A DNA stretch of 64,000 nucleotides. Source: Dehalococcoidia bacterium (GTDB lineage Bacteria > Chloroflexota > Dehalococcoidia > Lucifugimonadales > CAJWER01). Made by a program: the position numbers and the translations under genes. The DNA lies in contig CBDCTY010000002.1 of NCBI GenBank assembly GCA_965222445.1, positions 365,279 through 429,278 on the forward strand. Reading direction: 5' to 3'. The notes under the pieces are model-generated. The model saw nothing but the letters and a program-made list of their open reading frames with translations. It was not told where the DNA came from and did no database searches. Positions 8,853-59,696 of this stretch are shown piece by piece. Position 1 is the stretch's first letter; each line of letters starts with the position of its first letter.

Positions 8853-8870
8853 TCTTCATTGGTTGAGAAC

Positions 8871-8973
8871 TGCCCGTCGACAGGCTCAGGGCGAACGCGA
8901 TTGTTCACTCAGGGCTCGCTGGCGGCAGGTCGCTCGAAGGACTAGAAACTCAAAACTAGAAACTGGGAACTGA
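8871..8973. repeat. GCTCAGGGCGAACG-type mini-repeat plus ACTAGAAACT direct repeat
   Basis: CGACAGGCTCAGGGCGAACGCG..CTCAGGGCTCGC is followed by ACTAGAAACTcaaaACTAGAAACTgggaACTGA, directly upstream of the 8977 ATG. Confidence 0.5.
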
Positions 8974-8976
8974 CCC

Positions 8977-42224: not shown

Positions 42225-43741
42225 GTAATTGATTAGCGGCTGGCAGGGAGAGAGACGTTCAGACTGAAGGGGAGTGAACGGGAGGGCCGCTGAAAACAGC
42301 GCAGAGCCGGTCCACGACAGGCTGGTCGCCTCCATTGCGTTCCAACGTCCTGATTACGCTGGTGAACGCCGAGAACGCATCGGCCCCCTCCACGCTCTTG
42401 GAGCAGTGCGATACCTTCCGCGCGATCACTGCCGGGCGGAGCGCTCGCTCAGCACGGTTGTTGGTCGGCTCAATGCCCGGATCGTCCAGGAAGCGCAGCA
42501 GGTTCCCCGGTCGTCGTGCCAACCCAGCTCGTTCTGCAGCCGACAGCTGTCCGCATCCGACATAGGACGGTCACGGAGATGATAGCTCACCTCTCGCTTC
42601 AACCGTTCAGCCTGGATACGAAAGTCCGCAGCCTCTCCTCGGTGATATGCCCTCCACAGGTCCATGGCTTCTCGCAAAAGCGCACTCAGACTCTTGCCGA
42701 AGCTGCGTCCCCTCCCTGTCTTGGTCTGGACCACTTCGCTGACCGAGCGCAGCACGTGCGCCAGACACTTCTGCTGTTTGATCTCGGACAGCGTCTGGGC
42801 ATCGTAGCTCCGTCCTCGATCAGTCACCATCACCCCTCCATAGTCCGACGGGACCACCTCCCGCACCTCTTCGTTCCGGTGACGCGCACGGACCTGATAC
42901 ACCGTCGCCTCATCCGTCTCGAACGCCATCAGAAACGCACGCTCGCCTCCCACACGCCAGCCCGTGTCGTCGGTGTGGACGAACGGACTGGCGCGCACCG
43001 ATGTCCGCAGCCTGCTGTAGGCATCACCCACCGCACCAGCAGCACGACGCAGCGCGTCCTGGCTGATCGCTCCCTGACTCACTCTCACCCCGGTCAGCGC
43101 TCTGAGAACGGCAGGAACCTTCCGTACCGGAACGCCCACCCCATAGTGGAGCACGTGGGCCGCAGCCATCACTCGTCTCCCCACCCGGTGGGCGCTGGCC
43201 CCGTACTGGTCCGGCGCAACTTCTGGGTGCTCGCCACGCACTTGCCTGCCGCACGCCGGCACCGGCATACCTGCACACGATACGCCGTTACCTGGGGACG
43301 TGGAACCGGCAGAAGGTCGGTCACGTAGGCAAGCCGCACTCCCTCATGTTCGAGGACGCCTCCACATCCAGGGCAGGTGTCCCCCGACACTGGCGCCTCT
43401 ACAACCGGCTCGGTGATCTCATCGGCGGACGGCGGCTTGCGGTAGCTGAACTGCCCCGTACCCGGCTTGCGGCCAGGACGCCTAGGCTTGCTGCTGCGCC
43501 TGCCCTTGGAGAACGGCGCAGCCTGACGCTTTCCTCTCCGTTCGGACCCGGCAAGTTGGCTGTGCAACTCTTCGTTGGCTGCCTTCAACTCGGCAATCCG
43601 CTTCTGCTGCCCCTCGACCAGGGCCATCAGTTCGGCGTGCTCAGAATCCGTCTTGCACATAGATAGAGTATAAGAACTTACCGAGTCTTCCACAACACCC
43701 ATGTGAGTGATACCATGACACCGACCCCGCTAATCAATTAC
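42225..43741 (-). mobile_element. full-length IS66-family element, transposase broken into three ORFs
   Basis: The ends GTAATTGATTAGCGG (42225) and CCGCTAATCAATTAC (43741) are inverted repeats. ORFs 43169-43702, 42426-43268 and 42259-42522 together are colinear with the 481-aa transposase at 62491-63936. Confidence 0.9.
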
Positions 43742-43764: not shown

Positions 43765-44889
43765 ATGAATGTCTTGGTTACAGACAGTTCGGGGTTCATT
43801 GGCTCCGTACTAGTTAAAGCTCTGCTTCAGCGGGGACACCATGTCAGTGCTTTTGACAGGGTGCCAACGATGCATGCGTTGCCTGTCAACACACTGCTGG
43901 GGGACATACGGAGCTGTGACGATGTTCAGGCCGCCGTGCAGGGACAGGATATGGTGTATCACTTAGCGGGTGTTCTGGGGAGTCACGAACTGATTGGCAA
44001 CGTACGGCATTCGCTGGATGTGAATGTTGGGGGTACTCTTAACGTCCTTGAGTCCTGCAGAATTCACAGAGCGAAAATGCTATTGGTGTCCAAGCCAAAC
44101 GTCTGGCTGAACACCTATTCCATTACAAGAGAGACTGCCGAACAGTTTAGCAAGATGTACATGGTGGAGTATGGCGTCATTACGACGATCGTCAAATGGT
44201 TTGACGCGTATGGACCTGGACAGAAAGTGGGCCCTGGGCATATCCAGAAAGTGGTGCCGACGTTCATTGTCAACGCTCTCGAAAACAGGCCATTATCTGT
44301 GTTTGGGGATGGTAAGCAGACCGCCGACTTCATTTACGTTGACGATTTAGTCGAAGCAACAATAGCCGTCGCGGAAACACCTGCGGCAGTCGGGCGCACT
44401 GTGGAGATAGGTACGGGGATTGAGACGTCGATGCTGCAGTTGTGCAAAATGATCCTTGATATGACAGAAAGCTCCTCTGAGATCGAGTTTCAACCGATGC
44501 GCCCAGGCGAGACTGCGAATACTGAATTACGTGCAGATATGGCGACATTGAAGGAAACGACAGGCTTCGTACCACGAATCAAGCTAGACCATGGGCTCAA
44601 GCAGACGATTGCGTACTATAGGCAGATGCTAGATCGCGTAGCCATTTCGTCAGCCGTTCCAACTAACTTGCCTGACGACTCGGGCTGCGGTGCTTCCAAG
44701 CTCCCGACCATTCGCGAGATGGAGGTGTTGCGCTTGTTGGCCCTAGGTTACGATACCAAGGAGATTGCTGGTGAGCTTTACCTCAGCCCCCACACCGTTC
44801 TCAATCACATACGCAACATTCGCGAGAAACTTCAAGTGCCGACCAGACTGGGCGCTGTGCTTGCCGCCCAGCGCCGTGGCTTGCTCTAA
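43765..44889 (+). CDS. extended-SDR (NAD-dependent epimerase/dehydratase-like) domain fused to a LuxR/GerE-type HTH
   Basis: Epimerase-like fold (MNVLVTDSSGFIGS, VYHLAG, FIYVDDLV). The C-terminal 65 aa, REMEVLRLLALGYDTKEIAGELYLSPHTVLNHIRNIREKL, form a LuxR_C HTH. Confidence 0.75.
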   Translation: MNVLVTDSSGFIGSVLVKALLQRGHHVSAFDRVPTMHALPVNTLLGDIRSCDDVQAAVQGQDMVYHLAGVLGSHELIGNVRHSLDVNVGGTLNVLESCRIHRAKMLLVSKPNVWLNTYSITRETAEQFSKMYMVEYGVITTIVKWFDAYGPGQKVGPGHIQKVVPTFIVNALENRPLSVFGDGKQTADFIYVDDLVEATIAVAETPAAVGRTVEIGTGIETSMLQLCKMILDMTESSSEIEFQPMRPGETANTELRADMATLKETTGFVPRIKLDHGLKQTIAYYRQMLDRVAISSAVPTNLPDDSGCGASKLPTIREMEVLRLLALGYDTKEIAGELYLSPHTVLNHIRNIREKLQVPTRLGAVLAAQRRGLL

Positions 44890-45206: not shown

Positions 45207-45470
45207 TTACATACGATCCGGAGCGTCCATGACCATCAGGGACAGACAGCGCGCTAAGGAGATCCTGGCTGCATCCACCAGCTTGAGGCGAGCCTTGGAA
45301 ATCTCCGTGTCCTCAGGGGACTTGGAGATCACCTGGCACTGCTCATAGAAACGTTGGAAACTCGTCGCCAGCTCCAGGGCGTAGTGGGGAAGGTGGTGCG
45401 GAGCCAGGCTCCGGGCCATCTTCTCCACCAACTCGGGTAGCTCCAACATCTTGCGTATCAGCGCCAACTC
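45207..45470 (-). pseudogene. argS: arginine--tRNA ligase C-terminal (DALR anticodon-binding) fragment
   Basis: The last 87 aa of ORF 45207-45791 read [48 protein letters not shown]...[28 protein letters not shown]. They match the conserved ArgS C-terminus, including the terminal Met. The upstream 107 aa are not ArgS-like. Confidence 0.7.
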
Positions 45471-46069
45471 CGACTCGTGAGTGTAAGACGGGATAGGGCA
45501 TAAGGACTTTGGAGAGAATGATGCTCCTATAGATGTCAAGCCGCGCGTGCGATTATCTCGGCCTACATTTCTTTGAGACTGCCAGAACGAGGAGATCACT
45601 CCCTTGACGGATCTCCATGTGGCCCTCAGGAGGTGGCCGACAGGGCCAGCCGACAAAGAAGCCCTGAAGATCACTCGGACCAATTCCATCTGTCGTTTCT
45701 TGGTACGTAATCGGCATCGTCGCGCTCTATAATCAGCGAGCCAACGAACTATAAGCCGTGATACCTCATCCGCCACACTGCGGAGCACCACAAGGCGAAC
45801 CTGCCTAGATGGTCGCCACCAAATGGGACCGCCCTCCTGGCGTCCTCAGTTTCTGAAGGCCACCGCGAGTTGCGGGCGGCAAGTCCTGTTCTCCAATGCG
45901 ATCCTTGCTTCCGGGCTTTCTTCTAACCCCAGGGCCCCAAGGAAAGTTGCCCTGCATTTGATATGCTGGGACTTGAACAGTCAACATCCCCGGTCATCGG
46001 CTTAGGACGCCGGCGTAGCACCCTTATAGGTGGCTGTGAACCGAATCCAAGCGCAATCAGCGCTCTCAG

Positions 46070-47065
46070 TTGGATCAACCAAAGGAACCCCTGCCCGACG
46101 AGAAGTCCGCGTACAGACCAACAACCTTCGCAAAATCCCTGCAGACTCATATGGAAGAGTGGCGTTACGGCGTAGACGGCTCACGCGGCCGGTGGTGGGA
46201 TCACTGGTCCCAGGGCATCTACCCAGCATTCCGCTCACTTGCTGAGGAAGTCGTGCGCGCCGATTCGGTCAGGCTACACAAGCATGCCGCACATCTGAGA
46301 AGCTCACAGATGTTCGCCTTGAACCTCTTCCTTCCATTCCATAGGGGAAGCCTGTCGCGACTGTCTGACCGGGTCTGCGAGATTGTCGGCGTCAGGCTGT
46401 CCATTATGGATGTGTGTTTCGAGTGGGTGCCTCCCGGCTCGTTGCTGGGGGAAATCGACGGCGACCGTCCTGCCGGGGGCGAACCCGCAACGGCAGTGGA
46501 TGTCATCCTCCGGGGTCGTCTGGCAGACGACCGCCAGGCGGTGGTCGTGCTGGAGGTAAAACTGAGCGAGTCTGAATTCACACACTGCAAGGGCCGGACC
46601 AGCCCTGCGAACCGCCGGCTAGATGTATGTGAATCAGCCAGTCTTTTCTTTGAGGACCCCAAGGCCTGCTACCTTCGCAGACCGGTGAGGAAGCGGCGGG
46701 ACCGGCGTTACTGGGACATCTTTGCCCTAGAGCATGGCAGTGTGCGCGCAGCGTTCCCTGGCGCCGATCTCGAAGGGGCCTGTCCATTCTCTCAGAGCAT
46801 GCAACAGCCGATGCGCAACCTCGCTATAGCCAGAGGGCTCGTACAGGACAGGGGCTATGCCATCGCGAAGGCCTGGTTCGCGCTCTGTGCGCACGACGGC
46901 AACCAGGATGCCGCTGAGCATTGGGAGCGCTGGAAGCGCCTCTTGCCCGATGCGTCGATGGCTCCTGTGCTTTCGGCATCTGACGTCGTACGTGCCGGCG
47001 AGGACGAGGGACTCGTCGATTGGGCGGCGTGGATGCGCGATCGCTATCGGCTATGTTCGGCATAG
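46070..47065 (+). CDS. hypothetical protein with PD-(D/E)xK-like nuclease motif
   Basis: AVDVILRG..x13..VVVLEVKLSE has D...E-x-K spacing, followed by a Cys-rich segment (HCKG..VCES..ACYL..GACPF). TTG start at 46070, uncertain. Confidence 0.4.
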   Translation: MDQPKEPLPDEKSAYRPTTFAKSLQTHMEEWRYGVDGSRGRWWDHWSQGIYPAFRSLAEEVVRADSVRLHKHAAHLRSSQMFALNLFLPFHRGSLSRLSDRVCEIVGVRLSIMDVCFEWVPPGSLLGEIDGDRPAGGEPATAVDVILRGRLADDRQAVVVLEVKLSESEFTHCKGRTSPANRRLDVCESASLFFEDPKACYLRRPVRKRRDRRYWDIFALEHGSVRAAFPGADLEGACPFSQSMQQPMRNLAIARGLVQDRGYAIAKAWFALCAHDGNQDAAEHWERWKRLLPDASMAPVLSASDVVRAGEDEGLVDWAAWMRDRYRLCSA

Positions 47066-47242
47066 CCGCCATAGTAGCCACCACAGACTTGCCCGACCCT
47101 TGTCCAAGGCTCACTGGAGCCACGCTAATGGGTTGGTCAGGAGCTCGATGCTCGCACTTGTGATGCTGCGAGAGATATTCGGACATAGTCTCTCGACTTC
47201 GCCCGCCTTGTAATGCCACAATGTTAACCTGTGAGGCCACTC

Positions 47243-50200
47243 ATGGTGAATCGCTTCTTCGAACAACCCATACTCAACTCCCCTTACGAGTACCCAGCGA
47301 AGCACTGGGAGCTCGATGATCAGGGCCAGCCGACCCAGCAGATCATCGAGAACCGGCGAGGCGCGGAGTTCATCACGCCCATCCCGAAGCCCAGGAAGCG
47401 AAGGGCGGATAAGCGTCAGCAAGAATTCGTCATCGACGAGGGCAAGGGGCTGTCCACCCAGGAGCAACAGTACGACGTCACGGCGATGGTGAATGAGATT
47501 CGCCGCCAGGTCGACCAGTGGCGGGAGCTGCGCAATCCCAACGACTGGCGCGTCACGCCTGAGACCGCCCGCCTGCTCCAGCATTGGCGACACCACGACT
47601 TCAGCGACATCCGTCCCTTCTTCTGCCAGAGGGAGGCGGCCGAGACGGTCATATGGCTGACCGAGGTTGCGCCTAAGTCCGGGCAGGCCGGAAGGCGACT
47701 CCTCGACCGTCTCGCCAACACCAACAACGACGCCAACCCGGAGCTGTCGCGCCTAGCCCTGAAGCTGGCCACCGGCGCCGGCAAGACCACCGTCATGGCC
47801 ATGATCATCGCGTGGCAGACCATCAACGCCGTCCGGCATCCCAACAGCAGGCGCTTTACGCGGGGTTTCCTGGTAGTGGCTCCGGGCATCACGATCAAGG
47901 ATCGGCTGCGCGTGCTTCAGCCCAACGACCCGGACAGCTACTACGCTAGCAGAGAGCTGGTGCCCAGGGAGATGCTCGGAGACCTTGAACGCGCCAGGAT
48001 CGTCATCACCAACTTCCACGCACTCAGGCTGCGTGACCGTATGGAGCTCTCCAAAGGCGGACGTGCGCTCCTACAGGGCCGCGGGGCCGAGTTGGATACA
48101 GTGGAGACCGAGGGGCAGATGGTCCAGCGCGTCATACCCGATCTCATGGGTATGAGGAACATCTGGGTGCTGAACGACGAAGGACACCACTGCTACCGCC
48201 ACAAGCCGGGCGAGGACGACGAGGACACGCTTAAGGGCGACGACAGGAAAGAGGCCGAGAAGAATAACGAGGCCGCCCGTGTGTGGATATCAGGGCTGGA
48301 AATCGTCAAGCGTAGGATCGGCGTCAGGCAGGTTGTCGACCTGTCAGCGACCCCCTTCTTCCTTCGAGGCTCCGGCTATGCCGAGGGCACCCTGTTTCCC
48401 TGGACGGTCAGCGACTTCTCGCTCATGGACGCCATCGAGAGCGGCATCGTCAAACTGCCCCGCGTGCCGGTGGCTGACAACATCCCAGGCGGCGACATGC
48501 CCAAGTACCGCGTCCTGTGGGAAACCATCCGCGGTGACATGCCCAAGAAGGGCCGGGGCAAAGCGAAGGGGGCTCTCGACCCGCTCAGTCTGCCGGTGCA
48601 GCTTCAGACCGCCCTTCAAGCTCTCTATGGGCACTACGTGAAGACCTACGAAGCCTGGGCCAAGGCAGGAATAACCGCGCCGCCCTGCTTCATAGTGGTC
48701 TGCAACAACACCTCTACCTCTAAGCTGGTCTATGACTATATCTCCGGCTTCTACCGTGAGAACGAGGACGGCTCCGAGACCCTGGAGCAGGGCCGCCTTG
48801 CCCTGTTCCGAAACTTCGATGATCACGGCAACCCGTACCCTATACCCCAAACGGTGCTGATAGACAGCGAGCAGATCGAGTCCGGCGACGCACTGGACAG
48901 GGACTTTCGCAAAATGTCCGCCGATGAGATCGAGCGTTTCCGCAGGGAGAGGGTGGAGCGCACAGGCGACGCCCGGGAGGCCGAGAATATCACCGACCAG
49001 GACCTTCTCAGGGAGGTGATGAACACCGTCGGCAAGGAGGGCCGCCTTGGGCAGTCCATCCGTTGCGTCGTGTCGGTCTCCATGCTCACCGAGGGTTGGG
49101 ACGCGAACACCGTCACACACGTTCTTGGCGTGCGAGCCTTCGGGACCCAGCTTCTGTGCGAGCAAGTCATTGGCCGCGCCTTGCGCCGACAGTCCTACGA
49201 ACTCAACGACGATGGACTGTTCGATGTCGAGTACGCTGACGTGCTTGGCGTACCGTTCGACTTCACGGCGAGGCCGGTCGTCGTAAAGCCCCAGCAGCCT
49301 CGCCAGACCGTACAGGTAAAGGCGGTTCGGCCCGAACGGGACCATCTAGAAATCCGGTTCCCCAGGGTGTCAGGCTATCGCACCGATCCGCCCAGGGAAG
49401 AGCTCGCGGCCGAGTTCACCGACGACTCCTACCTGGAGCTTACGCCAGAGTTGGTCGGCCCGTCGACGACTAGGAACGAGGGCATCATCGGCGAGGGTGT
49501 CGATCTCAACCTGGTGCACACCGGCGATCTCAGGCGCTCCACCTTGCTGTTCCACCTCACGCAGCGACTGCTATACACCAAGTGGCGTGACTCAAACGAA
49601 GACCCCAAGCTGCACCTATTCGGGCGGCTAAAGGGAATCGCAAGACAGTGGCTGGACGGCTACCTAGTCTGCAAGGGCGGCACCTATCCGGCACAGCTCA
49701 TGTACCAAGACTTGGCGGACAGGGCTTGCGAGATCATCACGGCCGCCATCACCAACAGCCGCGCGAATGGGTATCCCGTCAAGGCGCTGCTCGATTCGTT
49801 CAACCCGACCGGATCGACCGTGCACGTGAACTTCAGCACGTCCAAGACCAGCCGCTGGGAGACGGACTCTCGCAAGTGCCACGTGAACTGGGTCGTCCTC
49901 GACAGCGACTGGGAGGCCGAGTTCTGCCGCGTGGCCGAGGCCCATCCCAGGGTGCGGGCATACGTGAAGAATCACAATCTGGGTCTTGAGGTGCCGTACC
50001 GCTCCGGCTCCATTGCACGCACCTACATCCCCGACTTCATCGTCCAGGTAGACGACGGACGCGGGGAAGACGACCCTCTTAACCTTGTCGTGGAGATCAA
50101 GGGCTACCGCAACGAGGACGCCAAGGCGAAGAAGCTCACCATGGAGACGTACTGGGTCCCCGGCGTGAACAACCTTCGCCAGTACGGACGGTGGGCCTTC

Positions 50201-50383
50201 GCAGAGTTCACGGACGTTTACGACATTGAAGCCGGGTTCGACGGCCTGGTACAGAGGTTCGTGGGGGGATCCAGCATTCCGGACTACAGCGCTCTCAGCG
50301 CCAAGGAGCTGCTCGCGTCCTGTCCCATTGACGAGGAGTATTTGGTCCGGCCTCGCGAGTTCCCGAGAGACATCGATTTTTGA
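47243..50383 (+). CDS. res: type III-like restriction enzyme Res subunit (SF2 helicase plus C-terminal PD-(D/E)xK nuclease)
   Basis: MVNRFFEQPILNSPYEYP N-terminus, LATGAGKTTVMA (motif I), VLNDEGHHCY (DEGH, motif II), SVSMLTEGWDANTVTHVLG (motif V/VI region) and PDFIVQV..x13..VVEIKGY nuclease core. Confidence 0.85.
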   Translation: MVNRFFEQPILNSPYEYPAKHWELDDQGQPTQQIIENRRGAEFITPIPKPRKRRADKRQQEFVIDEGKGLSTQEQQYDVTAMVNEIRRQVDQWRELRNPNDWRVTPETARLLQHWRHHDFSDIRPFFCQREAAETVIWLTEVAPKSGQAGRRLLDRLANTNNDANPELSRLALKLATGAGKTTVMAMIIAWQTINAVRHPNSRRFTRGFLVVAPGITIKDRLRVLQPNDPDSYYASRELVPREMLGDLERARIVITNFHALRLRDRMELSKGGRALLQGRGAELDTVETEGQMVQRVIPDLMGMRNIWVLNDEGHHCYRHKPGEDDEDTLKGDDRKEAEKNNEAARVWISGLEIVKRRIGVRQVVDLSATPFFLRGSGYAEGTLFPWTVSDFSLMDAIESGIVKLPRVPVADNIPGGDMPKYRVLWETIRGDMPKKGRGKAKGALDPLSLPVQLQTALQALYGHYVKTYEAWAKAGITAPPCFIVVCNNTSTSKLVYDYISGFYRENEDGSETLEQGRLALFRNFDDHGNPYPIPQTVLIDSEQIESGDALDRDFRKMSADEIERFRRERVERTGDAREAENITDQDLLREVMNTVGKEGRLGQSIRCVVSVSMLTEGWDANTVTHVLGVRAFGTQLLCEQVIGRALRRQSYELNDDGLFDVEYADVLGVPFDFTARPVVVKPQQPRQTVQVKAVRPERDHLEIRFPRVSGYRTDPPREELAAEFTDDSYLELTPELVGPSTTRNEGIIGEGVDLNLVHTGDLRRSTLLFHLTQRLLYTKWRDSNEDPKLHLFGRLKGIARQWLDGYLVCKGGTYPAQLMYQDLADRACEIITAAITNSRANGYPVKALLDSFNPTGSTVHVNFSTSKTSRWETDSRKCHVNWVVLDSDWEAEFCRVAEAHPRVRAYVKNHNLGLEVPYRSGSIARTYIPDFIVQVDDGRGEDDPLNLVVEIKGYRNEDAKAKKLTMETYWVPGVNNLRQYGRWAFAEFTDVYDIEAGFDGLVQRFVGGSSIPDYSALSAKELLASCPIDEEYLVRPREFPRDIDF

Positions 50384-50820
50384 CGTATCTGCTCGATACC
50401 AACGTGATCTCGGAACTGCGCAAGGGCGACCGCTGTGACGCCAACGTGACGGCTTGGTACGCAGGCGTGGAGGAAACGGACATATTCCTTAGCGTACTGG
50501 TGCTTGGTGAGATGCGCAGAGGCATCGAGTGGATACGGAGGCGTGATCCGCAGCAGACCGTCGTTCTGGAACGCTGGCTCGAAGAGACCGCTCTGAGGTT
50601 CGCCGGTCGGATAATGCCCGTCGACGACATGATTGCCGAACTTTGGGGGAGAACATACTATGTGCGCAACGTCCCAGTGGTCGACGGCCTGTTGGCTGCC
50701 ACCGCCATGGCGCATGACATGACCCTGGTAACTCGAAATGTCTCGGACGTTGAAGGGCTGGGTGTACGAGTGCTCGACCCCTTCAGAGGAAACGACAACT
50801 CGCACGAATTAGTCCAATAG
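50380..50820 (+). CDS. vapC: VapC-family PIN-domain toxin
   Basis: YLLDTNVISELRK, GEMRRG and LLAATAMAHDMTLVTRNVSD. The TTG start overlaps the res stop (TTGA). Confidence 0.9.
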   Translation: MTYLLDTNVISELRKGDRCDANVTAWYAGVEETDIFLSVLVLGEMRRGIEWIRRRDPQQTVVLERWLEETALRFAGRIMPVDDMIAELWGRTYYVRNVPVVDGLLAATAMAHDMTLVTRNVSDVEGLGVRVLDPFRGNDNSHELVQ

Positions 50821-50837
50821 AGAGGACAACGACTCTC

Positions 50838-53495
50838 ATGCCAAAAGGACGAGCCAAACGGCCCAAGTCAGTCGAGACCCTCACACACGAGGAGGCCCGG
50901 CGGAGAAACCTGCCGTCAGCCGAGCACCAGCCTCTGATGCGAGAGGAGGAGCAGAGCGCCGTTCGCGTGGCCTACGAGCGGCGCAACCGCGATCTGGATC
51001 CTCAGCTCGTGTGGCGGGGCAAGGACGAGCAGGACTCGGAGGACCTGGAGGTCAACGTCCCGCCGCTGTACATCCAGGAGCGGACCCACCCGAAGGTACT
51101 GGTCGACGACCTGATGCGGCAAACCGGCAGCGGCGGGACATCGGAGGACGAAGGGCGACAGCAGGGGTTCGCGGACCTGTTCGCCGACTTCAACGGCCTG
51201 CCGTCCGAGGACGCGAAGACCGAGTTCTACCAGCACGACGCCAACTGGTCGAACCGCATGATCCTCGGCGACAGCCTGCAGGTGATGGCGTCGCTCGCCG
51301 AGCGCGAGGGACTGCGGGGCAAGGTGCAGTGCATCTATGTCGACCCGCCCTACGGCATCAAGTTCAACTCCAACTTCCAGTGGTCCACGACCAGCCGCGA
51401 CGTGCGTGACGGCAACGCCGCTCACATCACCCGCGAGCCGGAGCAGGTGAAGGCATTCCGCGACACTTGGCGCGACGGGATTCACTCGTACCTGACCTAC
51501 CTGCGCGACCGCCTAACCGTGGCCCGAGACTTGCTCTCCGATTCGGGTTCGATCTTCGTGCAGATTGGGGATGAGAACGTTCATCGTGTGCGAGCACTCA
51601 TGGACGAGGTATTTGGGGACGGAAACTTCATCAGTCTTATAACCTATCGCACGAGCAGCGGAACCACGCAACAGAGTTCAGTCAAACGCGTATCGGACTA
51701 CATAGTTTGGTACTGTAAAGACTCGGACTCGATTAAGTTCCGGAGGCTACTTGAGGATAAGCACGTTGATACCAGTATGTACAATCAACTGGAACTTGAG
51801 AATGGGACTCGACGTCCTATGACCGCAGACGAAAGACGTGACCCTTCAACTTGCCCTGCCGACGCCCGACCATACCAGAAGCTTCCAGTTCATTCTATGG
51901 CTTCTGGAGACCATGAGCCACGGGCGATTTTTGGAGCCGTCTGGCGCATACCGCCAACTTCTCATTGGCGGTATGCGCCAGACGGCTTTACGAGACTTTA
52001 CAAAGCCTCACGCATCCATCCTGACAGGACAGCCCTCAGAGCGGTCTACCATCACGATGACTATCCAGCCTTCGAAATCTCAAACTCATGGATCGATACT
52101 GGCCCTGAAATTGAGAAGTCTTATGTAGTTCAGACTTCAACGTCACCAATTGAACGCTGCATCCTGATGACGACCGATCCCGGAGACTTAGTGCTGGATC
52201 CAACCTGTGGGTCAGGCACCACCGCCCATGCCTCTGAGAAGTGGGGCCGCCGCTGGATCACCATCGACACCTCTCGTGTGGCACTCGCCCTAGCCCGTGC
52301 CCGTATCATGGGAGGCCGATATCCGTACTACCTACTCTCAGACAGCCGTGATGGGCAAGTCAAGCAGGCGGAGATCGAGCGCAAGGCCGCATCAGAGTCT
52401 CCTACATACGGGGATATCCGCCAAGGCTTCGTCTACGAGAGGGTGCCGCACATCACGCTACGGGCCATCGCCAACAACACGGAGATCGACGTTATCTGGG
52501 AGGACGCCCAGGAGGATTTGGAGTCCCTTAGAGAGGAGTTGAACCACGTGCTCGGCGAGTCGTGGGAGGAGTGGGAAGTTCCCCGCGATGCGGATAAGGT
52601 CTGGCCGGATGACGCACGAAGTCTTCACGCCCAATGGTGGGAGCGACGCATCGCGCGCCAGAAGGAGATCGACACTTCCATAGCCGCCAAGGCCGACTAC
52701 GAGAACCTATACGACAAGCCCCATGAGGACCGAAGCAAGGTAAGGGTCGCGGGGCCATTCACGGTCGAGAGCATCTCACCACACCGTGTCCTTGGAGTAA
52801 ACGAGGACGGTGACGTCATCGCAGAGTCGTCCAACGGTTACGGGAGCGAATATGACTTCGCTCAGGTCATGCTGGACAACCTGGGAACCTCTGGCGTACA
52901 GCAGGCCAATAGAGAGGACAGGATAGAGTTCACGTCCATCACCCCCTGGCCGGGGCGTTTGGTGTGCGCTGATGGGCGCTACGTGGAGGGCGGCGAGGAG
53001 AACGGCATCGAGCGCCGCGCCGCGATCTTCATCGGCCCCGAGTTCGGCACGGTGTCCCGCCCGGACCTCGTGGAAGCGGCGCGCGAGGCCGCTGACGGCG
53101 GATTCGATGTCCTAATCGCCTGTGCCTTCAACTACGAGGCGCACACCACCGAGTTCGAGAGCCTTGGGCGGGTCCCTGTGCTGAAGGCTCGCATGAACGC
53201 CGACCTCCACATGGCCGAAGACCTGAAGAACACGGGCAAGGGCAACCTGTTCGTGATCTTCGGAGAGCCGGACATCGACATCCTCGACGCGGACGATGGC
53301 CGGATCCAGGTAAGGGTCAACGGCGTGGACGTGTTCCATCCCAATACGGGCGAAGTACGCAGCGACGGGCCGGAGGGAATCGCCTGCTGGTTCATCGACA
53401 CCGACTACAACGAAGAGGCGTTCTTCGTCCGTCACGCCTACTTCCTGGGAGCCAGCGACCCATACAAGTCGCTGAAGACCACGCTCAGGGCTTGA
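50838..53495 (+). CDS. mod: type III-like DNA methyltransferase Mod (N6/N4 class), 3' end frameshifted
   Basis: LVWRGKDE, NRMILGDSLQVM, IYVDPPYG (motif IV) and DPTCGSGTTAHA (motif I). The conserved-looking C-terminal tail continues in another frame (53494-53631). Confidence 0.85.
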   Translation: MPKGRAKRPKSVETLTHEEARRRNLPSAEHQPLMREEEQSAVRVAYERRNRDLDPQLVWRGKDEQDSEDLEVNVPPLYIQERTHPKVLVDDLMRQTGSGGTSEDEGRQQGFADLFADFNGLPSEDAKTEFYQHDANWSNRMILGDSLQVMASLAEREGLRGKVQCIYVDPPYGIKFNSNFQWSTTSRDVRDGNAAHITREPEQVKAFRDTWRDGIHSYLTYLRDRLTVARDLLSDSGSIFVQIGDENVHRVRALMDEVFGDGNFISLITYRTSSGTTQQSSVKRVSDYIVWYCKDSDSIKFRRLLEDKHVDTSMYNQLELENGTRRPMTADERRDPSTCPADARPYQKLPVHSMASGDHEPRAIFGAVWRIPPTSHWRYAPDGFTRLYKASRIHPDRTALRAVYHHDDYPAFEISNSWIDTGPEIEKSYVVQTSTSPIERCILMTTDPGDLVLDPTCGSGTTAHASEKWGRRWITIDTSRVALALARARIMGGRYPYYLLSDSRDGQVKQAEIERKAASESPTYGDIRQGFVYERVPHITLRAIANNTEIDVIWEDAQEDLESLREELNHVLGESWEEWEVPRDADKVWPDDARSLHAQWWERRIARQKEIDTSIAAKADYENLYDKPHEDRSKVRVAGPFTVESISPHRVLGVNEDGDVIAESSNGYGSEYDFAQVMLDNLGTSGVQQANREDRIEFTSITPWPGRLVCADGRYVEGGEENGIERRAAIFIGPEFGTVSRPDLVEAAREAADGGFDVLIACAFNYEAHTTEFESLGRVPVLKARMNADLHMAEDLKNTGKGNLFVIFGEPDIDILDADDGRIQVRVNGVDVFHPNTGEVRSDGPEGIACWFIDTDYNEEAFFVRHAYFLGASDPYKSLKTTLRA

Positions 53496-53700: not shown

Positions 53701-56472
53701 ATGACGTTTACGAGACAGGACGCTGACAACTGGGCGAAAGAGGTGCCGGGTGCGCGGTGGCTCAAGGCCGATCTGCACATCCACACCGTGGACGACCTTC
53801 CGGGACGCAGGGCGAAGTTCCCGGCCGACGTTAACGGGGACCCGCAGGCGTCCAATACCATTTCGGCCTACGCCAAGCGGTTCCTTCAGAGCGCGGCGGA
53901 ACGTGGCGTGCGGGTGCTTGGCATCACACCGCACTCGCCCCGCGTCGGAACCGCAGCGGAGACCAGTGTGGTGTGGAGGATAGTGGAAGAGTGGAACAGC
54001 GGCGTCGATGACGATGATGTCCCGTTCCGGGAAAAGATATACGCTGTGTTCCCCGGCTTCGAACCGTCCTTCAACCAAGGTCGCAGCGGACTACACATGC
54101 TGTTCCTGTTCGATCCGGAGATAGGCCGCACCGACTATCTAAAGGCCTTCGACCTTGTGATGGGTGGGGTGTCGCCGTGGAATGGGCGCGAGCTTCAACT
54201 GTCCGGGAGGGGCGCCAGTGATGCGTTCAGTGAACTCCGCAAGTTCCACCGTCGTGAAGGTCGCAGGTCAGATGATGGTGGCTTCCAATGGAACTATATG
54301 ACGCTTGCGCCTCACATCGACCAAGAGAAGGGACTGCTTGGAGCACAGGGGATGCATGTGCTGAACCTCTTCCCACACTCTGAGGTGGCCGGCCTAGAGC
54401 TCGGTGATGAAAAGTTGCCCGAGGATTACATGGGAGGCGGTTTGGATCTGGCGAAAAGAATGGCGGAGCTTCGGCAGGCGTTCTACCACAGTAGTGATGC
54501 CTATAGGATCGACGAAATTGGCAAGCGCCATACATGGCTCAAGCTCGCCAGTCCTAGGATAGAGGCGTTGCGGCAGGCGTTCATCGCCAGCGAATCAAGA
54601 ATGCGGATAGGATACGAACGTGGTGAAGACGGCACCTTGTACGAAGCTCCAGATCCCCCCGACGTAACTATGAACAAACGTCCGTGGCTGAAGTCCGTCA
54701 GGGTCTCCGGCAAGGCTTCGTTCTTCGGCGCCGGCGGTGAAGACGGACAGGGCAGCCATTTCGACTTCAGCCCCGACCTTACTTGCGTCATTGGCGGCAG
54801 CATGACGGGCAAGAGCACCCTCCTCGACGGTCTGAGAGTGCATGTCGACGCCCCGCTGCCAGAGGACGACAGCGTGAGGAAACAGGTTGAGGCGCGCGGC
54901 AGGGACCGCTTTCTGAGTGGCTCTGCGGAGGTTCTTCTCGACTGTCCTGGTCGGGATCCGACTGCGGCGCCTCGTGAGCAGTGGCCTGCGGAGTTCTACA
55001 CGCAGACCGAGTTGCAGAGGCTGGCGCAGAACCCCGAGGCTGTAGAGGACATTCTCGCCAGGCTGGTGGCGTCTGAGACACAAGACATCATGGAACGTGA
55101 GGGACGCTTGGGCGAGCTCGACGGGGAATTGACTCGCGCCGCCGGTCGTCTCGCGAAACTAGGCGACGACCAGGCGGATGCCGAGCAGGCATTCCAGAGA
55201 AGCCAGAGAGCGGCAGAGGAGCTTGCCGCATTTTCGGATGCCGGCGTGGAGAGCTTGAATCGCGTGTCCAGCGATCTGAGCCGCTCGCGGGGTTCTGCAA
55301 AGGCTGCGACTGAGCTGGCGGGCGAGGTGGACAGGCTCTTGGAATCTATATCGGTGGTAGACATACCGGATATCGACGACGGCCTTACCGGAGTGCTCGA
55401 AGCCGCGGGGATAGTTGAGGGCGAAGTGGACTTCCGCGCGCGGTGGGACCGTATTCGACGCTCGCTAAGGTCCGCTAAGGACGAGTTGGGTGCGGCGAGT
55501 GTTGTGCTCAAGTCCATAGTTGATGCGCTGGAAGACCACGAGGATAGTGTCCGTGTACGGGTAGACCGCGATTTGGCGGCCCGTGAACTGGATGGAGCGA
55601 GGATCAATCAGCTCCAGGAGCTGACCGCTCAGGCTTCACTGCTGGAGAGCTATCAGGCGCATCTCAATGAACAGCGAGGCACGCTTCTCCGCGCTAAGGA
55701 CAAGTTCGAAACACTGCGCCAAGAGCGAAGGGACCTTGTGCAGCAGCAGCGATGCGCGTTCGACCGTGTGATGGATGCGGTCCATTCCCAGTTCGACGGC
55801 CGAATAGAGGCCCGTCGGATCGATGAAGGCCGCAAAGACACTCTGGATCGTCTTCTCAGGGCGTTGAATCAGAGGGGGATCACACGATGGTGGAATGATT
55901 TGACGGATGAGCAGCGGCCCGCGCCCGATGACCTGCTCGAAAAGCTAGCCTCTGGGCATTTGGAAGAAGTCGGAATGAGCGAAGCAGTGGGTGAAACGTT
56001 CCGGGTGCAATTCACCCCATCGAGACAGCGCGAACTGGCAGCCCTCCGTTGTCCAGATAACTACGTGCTGGAATTCATGATGGGAGATGGCAGCTATCGG
56101 CCGCTAAGGGACCTTTCCGGCGGCCAGCGGGTGAACCTCTTGCTCTCTCTCCTGTTGGAGACAAATGACGAGCGGCCTCTGGTAATTGATCAGCCCGAGG
56201 ATGAACTGGACAACCGGTTTTTGTTCGAGACGATGCTTCCTGCACTCAAGCGGCTCAAGGGACGCAGGCAGATCATAGTAGCGACGCACAACGCGAATAT
56301 AGTGGTCAACGGGGACGCCGACCAAGTGATTCAATTGGAAGCGACCGCCGACCATGGATATGTTGCACGTTCAGGGGCCATCGAAGAGCCCGCCGTCCGA
56401 GATGCTATCGTCCAGACGGTTGATGGAGGTGACGAGGCATTTCGTCTGCGTCGGTTGAAGTACGGCTTCTAG
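53701..56472 (+). CDS. PHP-domain phosphoesterase fused to SMC/ABC-like ATPase (Ppl/TrlF-like architecture)
   Basis: KADLHIHTVDD and LGITPHS are PHP metal ligands and GGSMTGKST is Walker A. A coiled-coil of about 350 aa follows, then LSGGQR (signature-like), LVIDQPEDELD (Walker B) and VATHNANIVVNGDAD. Confidence 0.8.
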   Translation: MTFTRQDADNWAKEVPGARWLKADLHIHTVDDLPGRRAKFPADVNGDPQASNTISAYAKRFLQSAAERGVRVLGITPHSPRVGTAAETSVVWRIVEEWNSGVDDDDVPFREKIYAVFPGFEPSFNQGRSGLHMLFLFDPEIGRTDYLKAFDLVMGGVSPWNGRELQLSGRGASDAFSELRKFHRREGRRSDDGGFQWNYMTLAPHIDQEKGLLGAQGMHVLNLFPHSEVAGLELGDEKLPEDYMGGGLDLAKRMAELRQAFYHSSDAYRIDEIGKRHTWLKLASPRIEALRQAFIASESRMRIGYERGEDGTLYEAPDPPDVTMNKRPWLKSVRVSGKASFFGAGGEDGQGSHFDFSPDLTCVIGGSMTGKSTLLDGLRVHVDAPLPEDDSVRKQVEARGRDRFLSGSAEVLLDCPGRDPTAAPREQWPAEFYTQTELQRLAQNPEAVEDILARLVASETQDIMEREGRLGELDGELTRAAGRLAKLGDDQADAEQAFQRSQRAAEELAAFSDAGVESLNRVSSDLSRSRGSAKAATELAGEVDRLLESISVVDIPDIDDGLTGVLEAAGIVEGEVDFRARWDRIRRSLRSAKDELGAASVVLKSIVDALEDHEDSVRVRVDRDLAARELDGARINQLQELTAQASLLESYQAHLNEQRGTLLRAKDKFETLRQERRDLVQQQRCAFDRVMDAVHSQFDGRIEARRIDEGRKDTLDRLLRALNQRGITRWWNDLTDEQRPAPDDLLEKLASGHLEEVGMSEAVGETFRVQFTPSRQRELAALRCPDNYVLEFMMGDGSYRPLRDLSGGQRVNLLLSLLLETNDERPLVIDQPEDELDNRFLFETMLPALKRLKGRRQIIVATHNANIVVNGDADQVIQLEATADHGYVARSGAIEEPAVRDAIVQTVDGGDEAFRLRRLKYGF

Positions 56473-56482
56473 GAGGCCGGGA

Positions 56483-57670
56483 ATGGAATGGCTGAGAATC
56501 CTTGAGTGTATCGAACGAGGTGAGGATAGACACACCGAGTTCAAACGTGGGCTTGGCGATCTGTCGGCGGTCGGCAAATCAGTTTGCGCCTTCGCGAACA
56601 CTGAGGGAGGCGTCATCATACTAGGCGTAACCGATACTACCCGGCAGATTGTGGGTGTCAAGGAGGACGCTGAACAGGTCCAAGAGAAGTTAGCGTCGTT
56701 TCTTCAGTCTGGCTGCAGCTCACCGGTTTCTGCTCGCGCCGGGCGACATGAGAGTCCGAACGGTTGGGTCCACTGGCTTGAGGTCCCTCGCCAGCGCGGC
56801 TTTGAGCCCTTACGGTACGGTGGTCGAGTGTGGGTACGCCGGGAACGGAGCAGCGTCGAGCCATCTCCGACTGAGCTTCAAGAGCTATACAACGCCTTTG
56901 GGTACATCTTCACTGAGGAACGCACGATACAAGCTGCGACGGCGGCTCATGTCGATCTTCAAGTCTTCCACGCCTATCTCCAAGAGGTCGGACTCGACAT
57001 CGAGGACGAACCCCAGCCCGATGATGAGGACGACCTCCGTAATCGCGGTGTGGTAGCGGAGTTGGGAGGCGTGTTGCATCCTACGCTCTACGGCGTGCTG
57101 GCATTTGGCAAGGAGCCACAAAGCTATCCGCAAACACAAAACTTCCGGGTAGAGTGTGTCGCATACGAGGGCGACGACCGGGCTTCGAATGTGCTGCAAG
57201 TGGCTGAAGCCTCAGGCCGTCTGGACGAACAAGTACTACGAGCGGTCGGCTGGTTCTCGAGCCTCGGGCGGTTCGAGTCGTACCGTGGACTGATCAGGGA
57301 AGACCATCCGTTGCTGCCACAGGCGGCTCTTCGAGAGTCGCTGGTAAACGCTGTGGTGCACAGGGACTACGCAATCACCGGATCGAAGGTGCTGCTTGAG
57401 GTTTTCACTCGGCACGTAGACGTGACGAGCCCGGGCGGATTGCCCAATCACATGAGTGTCGAGAGTGTCCAGGCCGGCGGTCATCCGCGGTCGAGGAACG
57501 AGTCGATGGCGAACTACATGCTGGTGATGGGTTACATGGAGCAGCGGGGCAGGGGTTGGCCTGTGATGCGCAGGGCAATGCGCGAGTTCAACGGAACCGA
57601 ACCTGAGATTACGCAGGGAGACTCTGGCGCATTTGTCAGATTGAGATTCCATCTCGAATCATTAAAGTAG
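56483..57670 (+). CDS. AlbA_2 (Schlafen-type) DNA-binding domain plus HATPase_c_4-like domain protein
   Basis: GEDRHTEFKRGL..VCAFANTEGGVIILGV is AlbA_2. NAVVHRDY..TSPGGLP..RSRNESMANYM..GYMEQRGRG is HATPase_c_4-like. Confidence 0.8.
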   Translation: MEWLRILECIERGEDRHTEFKRGLGDLSAVGKSVCAFANTEGGVIILGVTDTTRQIVGVKEDAEQVQEKLASFLQSGCSSPVSARAGRHESPNGWVHWLEVPRQRGFEPLRYGGRVWVRRERSSVEPSPTELQELYNAFGYIFTEERTIQAATAAHVDLQVFHAYLQEVGLDIEDEPQPDDEDDLRNRGVVAELGGVLHPTLYGVLAFGKEPQSYPQTQNFRVECVAYEGDDRASNVLQVAEASGRLDEQVLRAVGWFSSLGRFESYRGLIREDHPLLPQAALRESLVNAVVHRDYAITGSKVLLEVFTRHVDVTSPGGLPNHMSVESVQAGGHPRSRNESMANYMLVMGYMEQRGRGWPVMRRAMREFNGTEPEITQGDSGAFVRLRFHLESLK

Positions 57671-57674
57671 TGAC

Positions 57675-59696
57675 ATGGACTTTCGGATTGCCGATACGTT
57701 TACGGGTAGTCTTACGAGGTTGACCGGCGACGAGCAGAAGGTCATCAAGACCACGGCCTTCGATCTACAAATGGACCCATCCCGTCCGGGCCTGCAACTC
57801 CACAGGCTTGATGGGGGACGAGACCGCAACTTCTGGTCTGTACGGGTTAGCCGCGACATCAGGATCATCGTCCACCGGACCCAAAGTAGCCTCATGCTCT
57901 GCTACGTCGACCACCACGACGAGGCGTACAGTTGGGCAGTGCGACGCAAGCTAGAGACCCATCCAAAGACCGGCGCTGCCCAACTGGTCGAGGTGCGAGA
58001 GACTGTCGAGGAGATTGCCGTCCCAGTATATGTTCCGGTAGCGCAGGAAGCGCAACCCAAGCGCCTCCCGTTCGCCGGTTTGTCAGACGATCAACTGCTG
58101 AGCTATGGGGTCCCTGCCGAGTGGCTGCCCGACATCCATACCGCCGATGAGGACGGCATTCTCGATCTTGCCAGCCATCTGCCAAGTGAGGCTGCAGAAG
58201 CGCTCTTGGAGTTGGCCACTGGCGGGACGCCCCAGGTTCCTAGCCCTGTTGCAGCAGGTATCGACCCATTCGATCACCCTGACGCGCAGCGCCGCTTCCG
58301 CGTCATGCGCGATTGGGAAGCGTTGGAGCAGGCCCTCGACTACCCGTGGGAGAAGTGGGCAATCTTCCTGCATCCGTCCCAGCGTGCGATAGTCGAACGG
58401 GACTATACCGGTCCTGCCAGAGTCTCAGGCTCGGCGGGTACGGGGAAGACCATCGTTGCGCTACATCGTGCGGTACATCTGGCTCGTACGAATCCCAACG
58501 CCAGAGTGCTGCTGACGACATTCTCGGAGACGCTCGCTAACTCGCTGCGCGACCGGCTGCGTATACTCGTCAGCTCCGAGCCCCGACTCGCAGAGCGAGT
58601 GGAAGTCTACGCCATGGACGCTCTTGGGGAGAGGCTGTTCGAGCTCAACCTGGGCGCGCCTTCGTATGCCTCGGAAGCGCAGATCTACACGCTGATCGAG
58701 GAGGCGGCTACCAACGTCGAGGGCAATAGGTTTGCGACGAGCTTCGTGCTGACGGAGTGGAAGCAGGTTGTGGATGCGTGGCAGCTCGATACATGGGAAG
58801 CCTATCGTGATGTCCCTCGCCTCGGCCGCAGGCGGCGGTTACCCGAAAGCCAACGCCAAGTTCTGTGGTCAATCTTCGAGCATGTACGGTCAGGGCTCAA
58901 AGAGCGGAATCTAACCACACGTTCGGAGATGTTTGGGCAGCTTGCGTCCAGGTTCGGCGAGACCCAGCGGTCGCCATTCGACTTCATAGTCGTGGACGAG
59001 GCGCAAGATATAGGCGTATCCCAGCTTCGCTTCCTTGCATCTCTGGGAGCGGAGCGGCCCGATGGACTCTTCTTCGCAGGGGATCTGGGCCAGCGCATCT
59101 TCCAGCAGCCGTTCTCGTGGCAAGCGCTGGGCGTGGAGATACGTGGGCGCTCCCGCACGCTGAAGATCAACTACCGGACCTCACACCAGATCAGGAAACG
59201 GTCCGACCTTCTCTTGGGGACGGAAATATCCGACATCGACGGCAACACGGAAGAGCGCTCAGGCACGATATCGGTATTCAACGGCCCCGAGCCGTCCATA
59301 GCGATTGCCGAATCCGCTGAGGAAGAACCCACGGCCGTCGCCGACTGGCTAATTGAGTTAATTGGACGAGGCCTGGAGCCTCACGAGATCAGCGTCTTCG
59401 TCAGATCAACCGATCAGGTCGACCGTGCCACTACTGCTATCGAGGCCGCCGGGCTACGGTCCAGAGTCCTGGGCGATTACGTTCAGACGACCGGAAGGCA
59501 CGTCTCGGTCAGCACCATGCATTTGGCGAAGGGACTGGAGTTCCGCGCCGTTGCTGTCATGGCCTGCGACGATGAGGTCATCCCGCTTCAGGAGCGGATT
59601 GAGTCGGTCACCGACGACTCGGACTTGGAAGATGTAGAGACTTCTCCGGCTGTCGTATCGTGTCAGAGGCGACAGGCATTCCAGAGGAAACCGTGA
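57675..59696 (+). CDS. SF1 UvrD-like helicase with RelE/ParE-fold-like N-terminal domain
   Basis: N-terminal motifs FWSVRVSRDIRIIVHR and YVDHHDEAYSWA. The helicase part has SGSAGTGKT (Walker A), FIVVDEAQD (motif II), INYRTSHQI and VSTMHLAKGLEF. The ORF ends soon after a degenerate motif VI (SCQRRQAF). Confidence 0.8.
   Translation: MDFRIADTFTGSLTRLTGDEQKVIKTTAFDLQMDPSRPGLQLHRLDGGRDRNFWSVRVSRDIRIIVHRTQSSLMLCYVDHHDEAYSWAVRRKLETHPKTGAAQLVEVRETVEEIAVPVYVPVAQEAQPKRLPFAGLSDDQLLSYGVPAEWLPDIHTADEDGILDLASHLPSEAAEALLELATGGTPQVPSPVAAGIDPFDHPDAQRRFRVMRDWEALEQALDYPWEKWAIFLHPSQRAIVERDYTGPARVSGSAGTGKTIVALHRAVHLARTNPNARVLLTTFSETLANSLRDRLRILVSSEPRLAERVEVYAMDALGERLFELNLGAPSYASEAQIYTLIEEAATNVEGNRFATSFVLTEWKQVVDAWQLDTWEAYRDVPRLGRRRRLPESQRQVLWSIFEHVRSGLKERNLTTRSEMFGQLASRFGETQRSPFDFIVVDEAQDIGVSQLRFLASLGAERPDGLFFAGDLGQRIFQQPFSWQALGVEIRGRSRTLKINYRTSHQIRKRSDLLLGTEISDIDGNTEERSGTISVFNGPEPSIAIAESAEEEPTAVADWLIELIGRGLEPHEISVFVRSTDQVDRATTAIEAAGLRSRVLGDYVQTTGRHVSVSTMHLAKGLEFRAVAVMACDDEVIPLQERIESVTDDSDLEDVETSPAVVSCQRRQAFQRKP

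Follow-up and report, generated by a model that had tools for sequence, protein, structure and literature searches.

Toxin-antitoxin (TA) modules and restriction-modification (R-M) systems are known to cluster. One toxin tied to a restriction enzyme is PrrC, a tRNA(Lys) anticodon nuclease which is latent on the type Ic enzyme EcoprrI (PMC1484252, PMC2610378). A survey of PIN-domain proteins by Matelska et al. 2017 found PIN/TA genes transcriptionally coupled to type I R-M subunits, with antitoxins that are sometimes missing, arrangements that are usually non-conserved and no direct TA-RM interaction shown (PMC5499597). In solved VapBC complexes, the C-terminus of the VapB antitoxin consists of a "lateral" helix and an extended "groove" segment, the arginines of which point into the PIN active sites (PMC5389673), and single-gene modules in which toxin and antitoxin are fused have been described as CapRel SJ46, fused HicAB and RelE-YiaG (PMC11980606, bioRxiv 10.1101/2023.12.08.570793). 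Here we describe a window of 64,000 nucleotides from a Dehalococcoidia bacterium (assembly GCA_965222445.1, contig CBDCTY010000002.1, positions 365,279 to 429,278), in which a vapC toxin gene lies between the res and mod genes of a type III-like R-M operon. Judged from its sequence, this toxin is probably kept silent by the restriction enzyme, since the restriction subunit Res ends in a tail homologous to the C-terminus of VapB-type antitoxins; the open-access literature that was searched describes no restriction subunit with such a tail.

Res scores 1358 bits against NCBIfam NF046055, the BPTD_3080-family restriction endonucleases (cut-off 800), with model positions 1-967 of 970 covering residues 10-1004, and contains the Pfam domains ResIII (158-324) and RE_endonuc (887-965), i.e., both the helicase and the PD-(D/E)xK nuclease of a type III-like enzyme. 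The adjoining Mod in the same operon is a type III-class methyltransferase (Pfam N6_N4_Mtase, 1.5e-34; PADLOC MTase_III PDLC03632, 1244 bits), and the order res...mod is kept in about 70 loci. Past the end of the family model at residue 1004, Res carries an extension of 46 amino acids (aa), GLVQRFVGGSSIPDYSALSAKELLASCPIDEEYLVRPREFPRDIDF, divided into a linker that is variable among cassettes and a 28-aa motif (Table 1). Reading from the in-frame stop upstream of vapC, its TTG is the first ATG, GTG or TTG to appear, and the first catalytic Asp (LLDTN) follows 5 codons later, so that no other start is usable; mod begins 17 nt past the vapC stop. On the plus strand no promoter-like or terminator-like sites were seen between res, vapC and mod, which is weak evidence because the scan used only the sigma-70 consensus. 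A separate small antitoxin open reading frame (ORF) was rejected: a hidden Markov model (HMM) of the cognate antitoxin matches the Res tail alone among all 1166 six-frame segments of the window, and none of the six small ORFs overlapping the res/vapC junction matches Pfam at E<=1. The 77 C-terminal residues of Res likewise match no antitoxin family in Pfam or NCBIfam; the curated libraries do not model this tail. The initial annotation of the stretch, made from the letters alone, had marked 50290-50820 as the end of Res and a vapC set between res and mod, with a TTG start overlapping the res TGA, no antitoxin gene of its own and a Res tail beyond the PD-(D/E)xK core; its coordinates are right within a few bases and all of these points hold.

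VapC is recognized by the Pfam PIN model (1.8e-11), and its closest solved structure is FitB (2BSQ, 2H1C, 2H1O; E 8e-17). Across 43 aligned homologues D6, E44 and D102 are invariant and D123 is kept in at least 90%, so that the PIN domain and the conserved acidic active-site residues of a VapBC toxin are both present. The window protein is full length, has all four of these residues and is 96% identical to a protein found on 5 contigs.

The link between the Res tail and antitoxins comes from the nearest free-standing relatives of this toxin. Three VapC homologues of 62-68% identity (P0117 at locus L012, P0068 at L093 and P0080 at L094) are directly preceded by an antitoxin of 92-95 aa, whose stop overlaps the vapC start and whose C-terminus has the same motif as the Res tail in the same end register; the L094 antitoxin, ending in ...SFKELLASCPLEGIDLSRSRELPRDVDL, and the window Res, ending in ...SAKELLASCPIDEEYLVRPREFPRDIDF, are identical at 17/28 positions. 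This free antitoxin family (~94 aa) comprises 76 clusters in a collection of 5.8 billion proteins and has no Pfam domain. An HMM of 94 positions built from 70 of its members aligns, in a search of the window, its positions 62-93 with Res residues 1019-1050 (E 0.0013); among 82 Res proteins it has a C-terminal match in every one of the 19 with a tail (best 3e-10, L015) and in none of those without. Profile-profile comparison of Res tails and antitoxins with hhalign gives 97.9% probability (P 5.7e-13) over 32 columns running from C-terminus to C-terminus, and a Lys, a Leu, a Pro and two Arg are invariant across both sets. The DNA-binding N-domains of VapBC antitoxins (AbrB, ribbon-helix-helix (RHH), Phd/YefM or helix-turn-helix) are absent from Res, because only its last ~30 residues match the antitoxin HMM; upstream of the tail lies the native Res C-terminal helix that is common to tail-less orthologues.

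An exhaustive HMMER search with a 40-position tail profile against 1.84 billion representatives returned 391 proteins at E<=1e-3. The best 150 of these are all small (38-243 aa), with the motif nearly always C-terminal; a few matches bear MazE/AbrB, RHH or PrlF N-domains and two run on into a VapC N-terminus. The motif may thus be seen as a portable module, predicted to bind the toxin, that VapB-type antitoxins combine with N-terminal domains of various kinds. An AlphaFold2 model of the free antitoxin (mean predicted local distance difference test score, pLDDT, 80.6) has a helical N-domain (residues 4-60), beyond which the motif forms a short helix (68-74, LKxLLAS) and then an extended peptide, a modelled shape that would match the lateral helix and Arg-bearing groove segment of the solved VapB tails. 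Searches of PDB with the free antitoxin sequence gave only chance-level matches, and with Foldseek the antitoxin model retrieved no PDB structure at E<=0.001. A natural single-chain antitoxin-VapC fusion was searched for and none was found; the 300-aa P0411 was rejected as such a fusion, being a VapC-Mod read-through. The initial annotation had likened the tail to Phd/VapB-type antitoxins, and the Phd part of that label is not supported: the close, donor-like antitoxins lack a Phd/YefM domain (PF02604) or any other Pfam match and their modelled N-domain is helical. A rhizobial Phd/YefM antitoxin, the partner of a 48%-identical VapC, has a tail (...SLVEALAMPGLSGIDFEPHRVEISPRHVDLS) that is similar by eye, with 0.2 bits for the best stretch, and this likeness is not statistically significant. 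The sequences therefore point to a donor antitoxin of VapB/FitA-like rather than Phd/YefM descent.

The same gene order recurs in relatives, all of which are metagenome-assembled genomes or metagenome contigs. VapC homologues at 96%, 87%, 65%, 64% and 63% identity (P0001, P0019, P0073, P0066, P0099, P0071) all lie in a Res(~1050 aa)-PIN-Mod cassette, the Res of which ends in a variant of the tail motif, e.g., ...LSFKEILVAGPSFDDLDLTRSPDSGRDVSF..., and cassettes from GTDB extend the range of VapC identity down to 54%. A scan with the Res alignment of one genome per GTDB species yielded 80 loci from many phyla with Res 72-90% identical to that of the window, and tail and vapC were scored in the 77 with a complete Res 3' end. 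Both are present, with vapC directly downstream, in 11; the tail occurs without vapC in 3, vapC without the tail in 0, and both are absent in 63 (Fisher's exact test p = 5e-11, for loci that share ancestry). Dehalococcoidia/Chloroflexota and Latescibacterota account for all 14 Res with a tail; the 63 tail-less ones end 5-40 aa past position 1004, typically in ...AKVEAEFNKMIE.... Stop and start codons overlap or abut in 11/11 loci with tail and vapC, and overlaps (TTGA, TGATG, TAGTG, TAATG) are found in 16/16 cassettes examined, the same geometry as at the three free-standing antitoxin-vapC pairs.

At the three loci with only a tail, vapC has given way to another gene: an NYN-domain gene in L013 (8320-9045) and L017 (8229-9038), and a Fic/DOC gene in L038 (8180-9292), which also has an unknown 476-aa protein, while L032, the sister locus of L038, retains vapC. 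As these are close relatives of vapC-bearing cassettes in which vapC has been replaced, they speak for loss of the toxin and not for a toxin-independent tail; such a loss, leaving an orphan tail, is permitted by TA logic, and vapC without the tail is never seen. In light of this, the earlier suggestion that Res has an antitoxin-derived C-terminus ahead of an orphan, coupled VapC is supported by the profile-profile homology and the strict co-occurrence. Of the comparisons proposed with it, that with antitoxin HMMs leads to the antitoxins of the nearest free-standing VapCs, and that with Res orthologues finds the tail in 14/77 and vapC in 0/63 of the tail-less; a tail without a neighbouring vapC, named in advance as evidence against the suggestion, formally does exist at the three loci, but as the trace of a replaced vapC.

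The tail and vapC also evolve together. Over 14 cassettes, tail identity follows VapC identity (r 0.67; partial r 0.64 when controlling for the core), while neither tracks the Res core (0.27-0.29): L015 is 87% identical in the core, 50% in the tail and 60% in VapC, and L020 has 78%, 96% and 80%, respectively. Tail and vapC are thus exchanged as one module between Res backbones. Codon alignment of four subtype-1 cassettes gives the 28-codon motif a ratio of nonsynonymous to synonymous differences (pN/pS) of 0.16, compared with 0.23 in the Res core, 0.28 in vapC and 0.45 in the linker, placing the tail under purifying selection; the lower pS of tail and vapC (0.42-0.43, vs 0.65 in the core) fits a later exchange of the module. 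In a rough neighbour-joining tree, drawn without support values, free-standing VapCs fall among the cassette VapCs, which suggests more than one fusion or fission event.

Capture of an antitoxin segment by Res is not confined to this family. At least three further unrelated antitoxin types are fused in frame to Res, each ahead of its own PIN type (Table 1), which brings in-frame capture of a neutralising segment to at least four occasions. In L046 the Res carries two antitoxin pieces in tandem, and in L021 its end is a chimera of a window-type tail and a ParD-like antitoxin tail ahead of a degraded PIN. Unfused pairs are seen at the same place: the res-mod gap holds a 79-aa protein with a PIN in L076 and L090 and a 96-aa protein with TumE in L068. 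Other cargo in the gaps of tail-less loci includes, as example counts, Schlafen/AlbA_2-HATPase_c_4 (8), Bro-N (6), a 23S-rRNA-IVS protein (3), YhcG (2) and NYN (2). Given this varied cargo and the complete TA pairs, the gap is a cargo hotspot in which unfused precursors exist (cargo-bearing gaps: L024, L026, L028, L030, L034, L036, L040, L041, L052, L057, L063, L064, L067, L068, L076, L082, L084, L087, L090).

Table 1. Coordinates of the res-vapC-mod operon, of its neighbours in the window and of antitoxin fusions at other loci
Feature	Position	Strand	Description
res	47231-50383	+	1050 aa, C-terminus ...SAKELLASCPIDEEYLVRPREFPRDIDF*
res core (Res aa 1-1004)	47231-50242	+	superfamily 2 helicase-like ATPase and PD-(D/E)xK endonuclease, type III-like R-M
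Variable linker (Res aa 1005-1022)	50243-50296	+	GLVQRFVGGSSIPDYSAL; joins the native Res C-terminal helix to the antitoxin-like motif
Antitoxin-derived tail (Res aa 1023-1050)	50297-50380	+	SAKELLASCPIDEEYLVRPREFPRDIDF; predicted VapC-binding/neutralising segment
TTGA overlap	50380-50383	+	vapC TTG start on res TGA stop, as read from the sequence; predicted translational coupling
vapC	50380-50820	+	146 aa, FitB-like PIN-domain toxin
mod	50838-53495	+	885 aa, type III-like DNA methyltransferase
IS66-family transposase ORF	42426-43268	-	flanks the island
Epimerase-regulator fusion	43765-44889	+	NAD-dependent epimerase/dehydratase with C-terminal LuxR/GerE helix-turn-helix
DALR ORF	45207-45791	-	194 aa
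REase-ARP/PDDEXK_13 nuclease	46070-47065		upstream of the cassette
Ppl-like ATPase	53701-56472		923 aa, partial match to the PADLOC Ppl model (1.7e-34)
Schlafen/AlbA_2-HATPase_c_4 protein	56483-57670		
UvrD-like helicase	57675-59696		
IS66-family transposase ORF	62491-63936	+	flanks the island
Fusion in L062	8174 (Res end), 8177-8551		Res extension ...SWLADAGGSEPQIEDIPRRRSEL, vs 110-aa L035 antitoxin E 1.5e-9; then a different 124-aa PIN
Fusion in L079	7971 (Res end), 7968-8342		Res extension ...LGGSDPDAQYVPRRR..., vs 110-aa L035 antitoxin E 0.002; then a different 124-aa PIN
Fusion in L046	Res aa 1009-1112, PIN within 8275-8805		133-aa Res extension: remnant of L062/L079-type tail (vs 110-aa L035 antitoxin E 2e-7) and ~70 aa of a third antitoxin type (vs 120-aa L035 protein E 3e-18); then a third PIN type
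Fusion in L021	8195 (Res end)		LSFKE and C-terminus of a ParD-like antitoxin, 97% to 74-aa L011 antitoxin over 34 aa; then an internally deleted PIN
Free counterparts in L035	9521-9853, 9850-10221, 8622-8984, 8981-9394		
Free counterpart in L011	5750-5974		

These observations make it likely that a TA module was inserted after res, lost its DNA-binding half and left its neutralising tail as a part of Res, where it now silences VapC. We infer this silencing from the fused antitoxin tail, and its steps may be pictured as follows. A vapBC module would have entered the cargo-hotspot gap directly 3' of res, and a deletion would have removed the DNA-binding half of the antitoxin, fusing the neutralising tail in frame to Res. 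VapC would then be made by termination-reinitiation, only by ribosomes that have just completed full-length Res, with the weak TTG start limiting the amount of toxin relative to antidote. The tail would capture and block VapC in the manner of the VapB/FitA tails in the PIN active-site groove, so that silencing would need ongoing synthesis of intact Res; a frameshift, a nonsense mutation, an insertion or loss of the operon would remove the antidote while pre-made VapC persists. With the antidote encoded at the very end of a 3.1-kb gene, in its last 28 codons, every truncation of res, like loss of the operon, would abolish it, and because VapC would outlast it, an intact res would be addictive. 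The primary consequence would therefore be the stabilization of res and the R-M operon by addiction. As a second role, phage infection might free VapC through degradation of Res, cleavage at the linker or a stop in Res synthesis, and such a release would be a possible abortive backup akin to PrrC/EcoprrI. Both proposals of the initial annotation find a place here: its fusion by loss of the DNA-binding half gains from the unfused TA pairs in the gap and the three other fusions, and its alternative of a working tether gains indirectly from the conservation over 54-96% VapC identity, the purifying selection and the joint exchange of tail and vapC.

Several observations weigh against this account. 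The antitoxin HMM gives only a moderate match to the tail subtype of the window (the E of 0.0013 comes from a window-sized search), and confidence in the origin of this tail rests on transitive links through subtype T2 and the L093 and L094 antitoxins. The tail profile finds no solved structure in PDB, FitA included. The motif also ends small proteins with unrelated or unclassified N-terminal regions, which makes it a movable module; the loci behind the co-occurrence are not phylogenetically independent; and decay is seen, with a vapC cut short to 112 aa in L014 and another gene in its place in L013, L017 and L038. An active VapC would, moreover, forbid loss of the tail, so that conservation could reflect selfish lock-in and not benefit to the host. 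Finally, subtype T1 (the window, L006, L013, L014, L017 and L020) offers a possible internal start, a GTG/ATG in frame 12 codons ahead of the motif, which in the window is the GTG of Val1011, and a GAGG 3 nt upstream of it. Such a start, or proteolytic clipping at the res 3' end, might supply a free antitoxin peptide of ~40 aa and leave full-length Res uninvolved, and proteins of 38-62 aa with little beyond the motif do occur among the exhaustive-search matches. We regard this as improbable: subtypes T2-T4 have no conserved internal start and L032 has none at all, a spacing of 3 nt is poor for a Shine-Dalgarno site, the AGG of the putative site encodes a conserved Res Arg, and short contigs may have yielded many of the short database proteins as fragments. 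More improbable by far is that tail and vapC are merely non-functional remnants of a dead TA module. The truncated and replaced vapC genes and the degraded PIN of L021 would agree with such a fate, yet the window vapC is full length with its four acidic residues and a 96%-identical counterpart on 5 contigs, the pN/pS values of tail and vapC are low and the overlapping start is retained in every cassette.

The other two alternatives bear on what the arrangement is for. It is conceivable, though on balance unlikely, that a TA module suffered a deletion after res from which only in-frame tail fusions survived, and that these were kept simply since loss of the tail kills the cell. This explanation shares its molecular mechanism, neutralization of VapC by the tail, with silencing by Res as proposed above and differs only on adaptive value. 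A general cargo hotspot that takes up Schlafen/AlbA, Bro-N, YhcG, NYN, Fic and complete TA pairs, unrelated antitoxins fused in several forms including the layered and chimeric ones of L046 and L021, and the truncation or replacement of vapC in some lineages are all in keeping with it. However, the fused state has been retained over 54-96% VapC identity in two phyla, tail and vapC move together between Res backbones, vapC is under purifying selection (pN/pS 0.28) although loss of the toxin is harmless and does occur, and four independent fusions in one enzyme family are many for an accident. By analogy with PrrC, which is kept latent by EcoprrI and activated by the T4 anti-restriction peptide (PMC1484252, PMC2610378), VapC might alternatively be stored on the R-M enzyme as a guard, to be freed or activated through inactivation, degradation or sequestration of Res by a phage or by shut-off of host translation, whereupon it would cleave tRNA and abort the infection as a second line after restriction. 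The position of a PIN toxin in an R-M operon inside a defence island (REase-ARP, Ppl-like ATPase, Schlafen/AlbA, UvrD-like helicase) would suit this, and VapC weakly matches the NCBIfam model of tRNA(fMet)-specific VapC. That match, at 27.5 against an equivalog cut-off of 140, is far under the threshold, and the sequence gives no distinction between regulated release and simple neutralization, so we hold the guard to be rather doubtful. An equally doubtful generalization is that Res-VapC pairs turn failed restriction into tRNA or RNA cleavage, and that this was reinvented several times by grafting the tails of different TA families onto Res.

Some further features of the res-mod gap deserve mention in their own right. 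Its flanks, the Res C-terminus and the Mod N-terminus, are both highly conserved and might act as anchors for recombination. On either side of a second inserted TA pair (ParD-like and PIN) in L011 stand two small chimeric ORFs (5452-5652 and 6399-6563) that duplicate the Mod N-terminus (MPRRARTRQP...SAEHQPLM), which one of them couples to the Res tail (AGPSFDDLDLTRPRDSGRDVSFLYDD...); they look like scars of cassette-exchange recombination. In L073 the Res (end at 8408) has a 137-aa C-terminal extension, and its stop codon overlaps the start of a 210-aa ORF (8405-9037) without a Pfam match; the two may form a further fused antidote-toxin pair. As to the enzymes themselves, BPTD_3080-family Res that are 72-77% identical (L013-L092) are spread across Chloroflexota, Nitrospirota, Desulfobacterota, Planctomycetota, Acidobacteriota and Bacillota, an identity across distant phyla that implies strong constraint and extensive horizontal transfer.

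The cassette of the window lies in a defence island (Table 1), with the REase-ARP/PDDEXK_13 nuclease upstream and the Ppl-like ATPase, the Schlafen/AlbA_2-HATPase_c_4 protein and the UvrD-like helicase following downstream; in L004-L006 as well, a Ppl-like gene lies downstream of mod. The island is flanked by ORFs of IS66-family transposases. Just upstream of it, the DALR ORF holds only the anticodon-binding domain of arginyl-tRNA synthetase and may be what is left of a gene cut at an insertion boundary. The epimerase/dehydratase with a LuxR/GerE domain is an unusual fusion of enzyme and regulator.

If VapC is indeed silenced by Res, the window locus would provide a sequence-level answer to the "missing antitoxin" of PIN genes in R-M operons, in that the peptide lies covalently within Res. 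Antitoxin tails could then be seen as portable modules by which any host protein might come to control a toxin, and their capture would offer a simple route by which an R-M operon, and specifically an intact res, becomes addictive. With four antitoxin types fused to one enzyme family, the idea is testable with several natural replicates. The locus also carries a warning for annotation, in that a toxin taken for an "orphan" may have an antitoxin concealed in the 3' end of a large neighbouring gene.

Set against the described systems, the window shares with type II VapBC/FitAB modules (FitAB of Neisseria gonorrhoeae; VapBC1 of Caulobacter crescentus, PMC5389673) a PIN toxin, FitB being the closest, and a C-terminal short helix and extended Arg-bearing peptide encoded directly upstream with a stop/start overlap, though the upstream ORF is res and not a small gene. 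To FitA itself, as to other PDB chains, the tail profile shows no detectable match. Whereas the N-terminal DNA-binding/dimerization domain of a canonical VapBC antitoxin autoregulates its operon, a restriction endonuclease of 1004 aa takes that place in the window; the system therefore falls outside VapBC as defined by that domain, and its expression would be governed by the R-M operon. An unfused counterpart in a type I setting is found on plasmid pALVIN02 of Allochromatium vinosum DSM 180 (L098; NC_013862.1 3326-5124), where the order is hsdM-antitoxin-vapC-hsdS: its VapC is 57% identical and of the same clade, and its 74-aa "hypothetical" antitoxin bears the same tail motif as a separate gene, in contrast to the fusion with a type III-like Res in the window. 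Unlike the usually non-conserved arrangements of the PIN survey (PMC5499597), the window cassette is conserved across many species. The fused TA genes likewise attach an antitoxin element covalently to another protein, but they join it to its own toxin, while here it is joined to a third party, Res, and the toxin remains a separate polypeptide. With PrrC/EcoprrI (and RloC) the locus has in common an RNA-targeting toxin gene inside an R-M operon, here vapC between res and mod, that is apparently silenced by the R-M enzyme. PrrC, however, joins an ABC-ATPase-like N-domain to its own anticodon-nuclease C-domain and goes with a type I enzyme, whereas VapC is a single PIN domain of 146 aa within a type III-like system; the window thus resembles PrrC/EcoprrI in logic, not in parts. 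It would form a second, mechanistically transparent example of the same principle, in which the putative silencing element is a recognizable antitoxin peptide borne covalently on Res.

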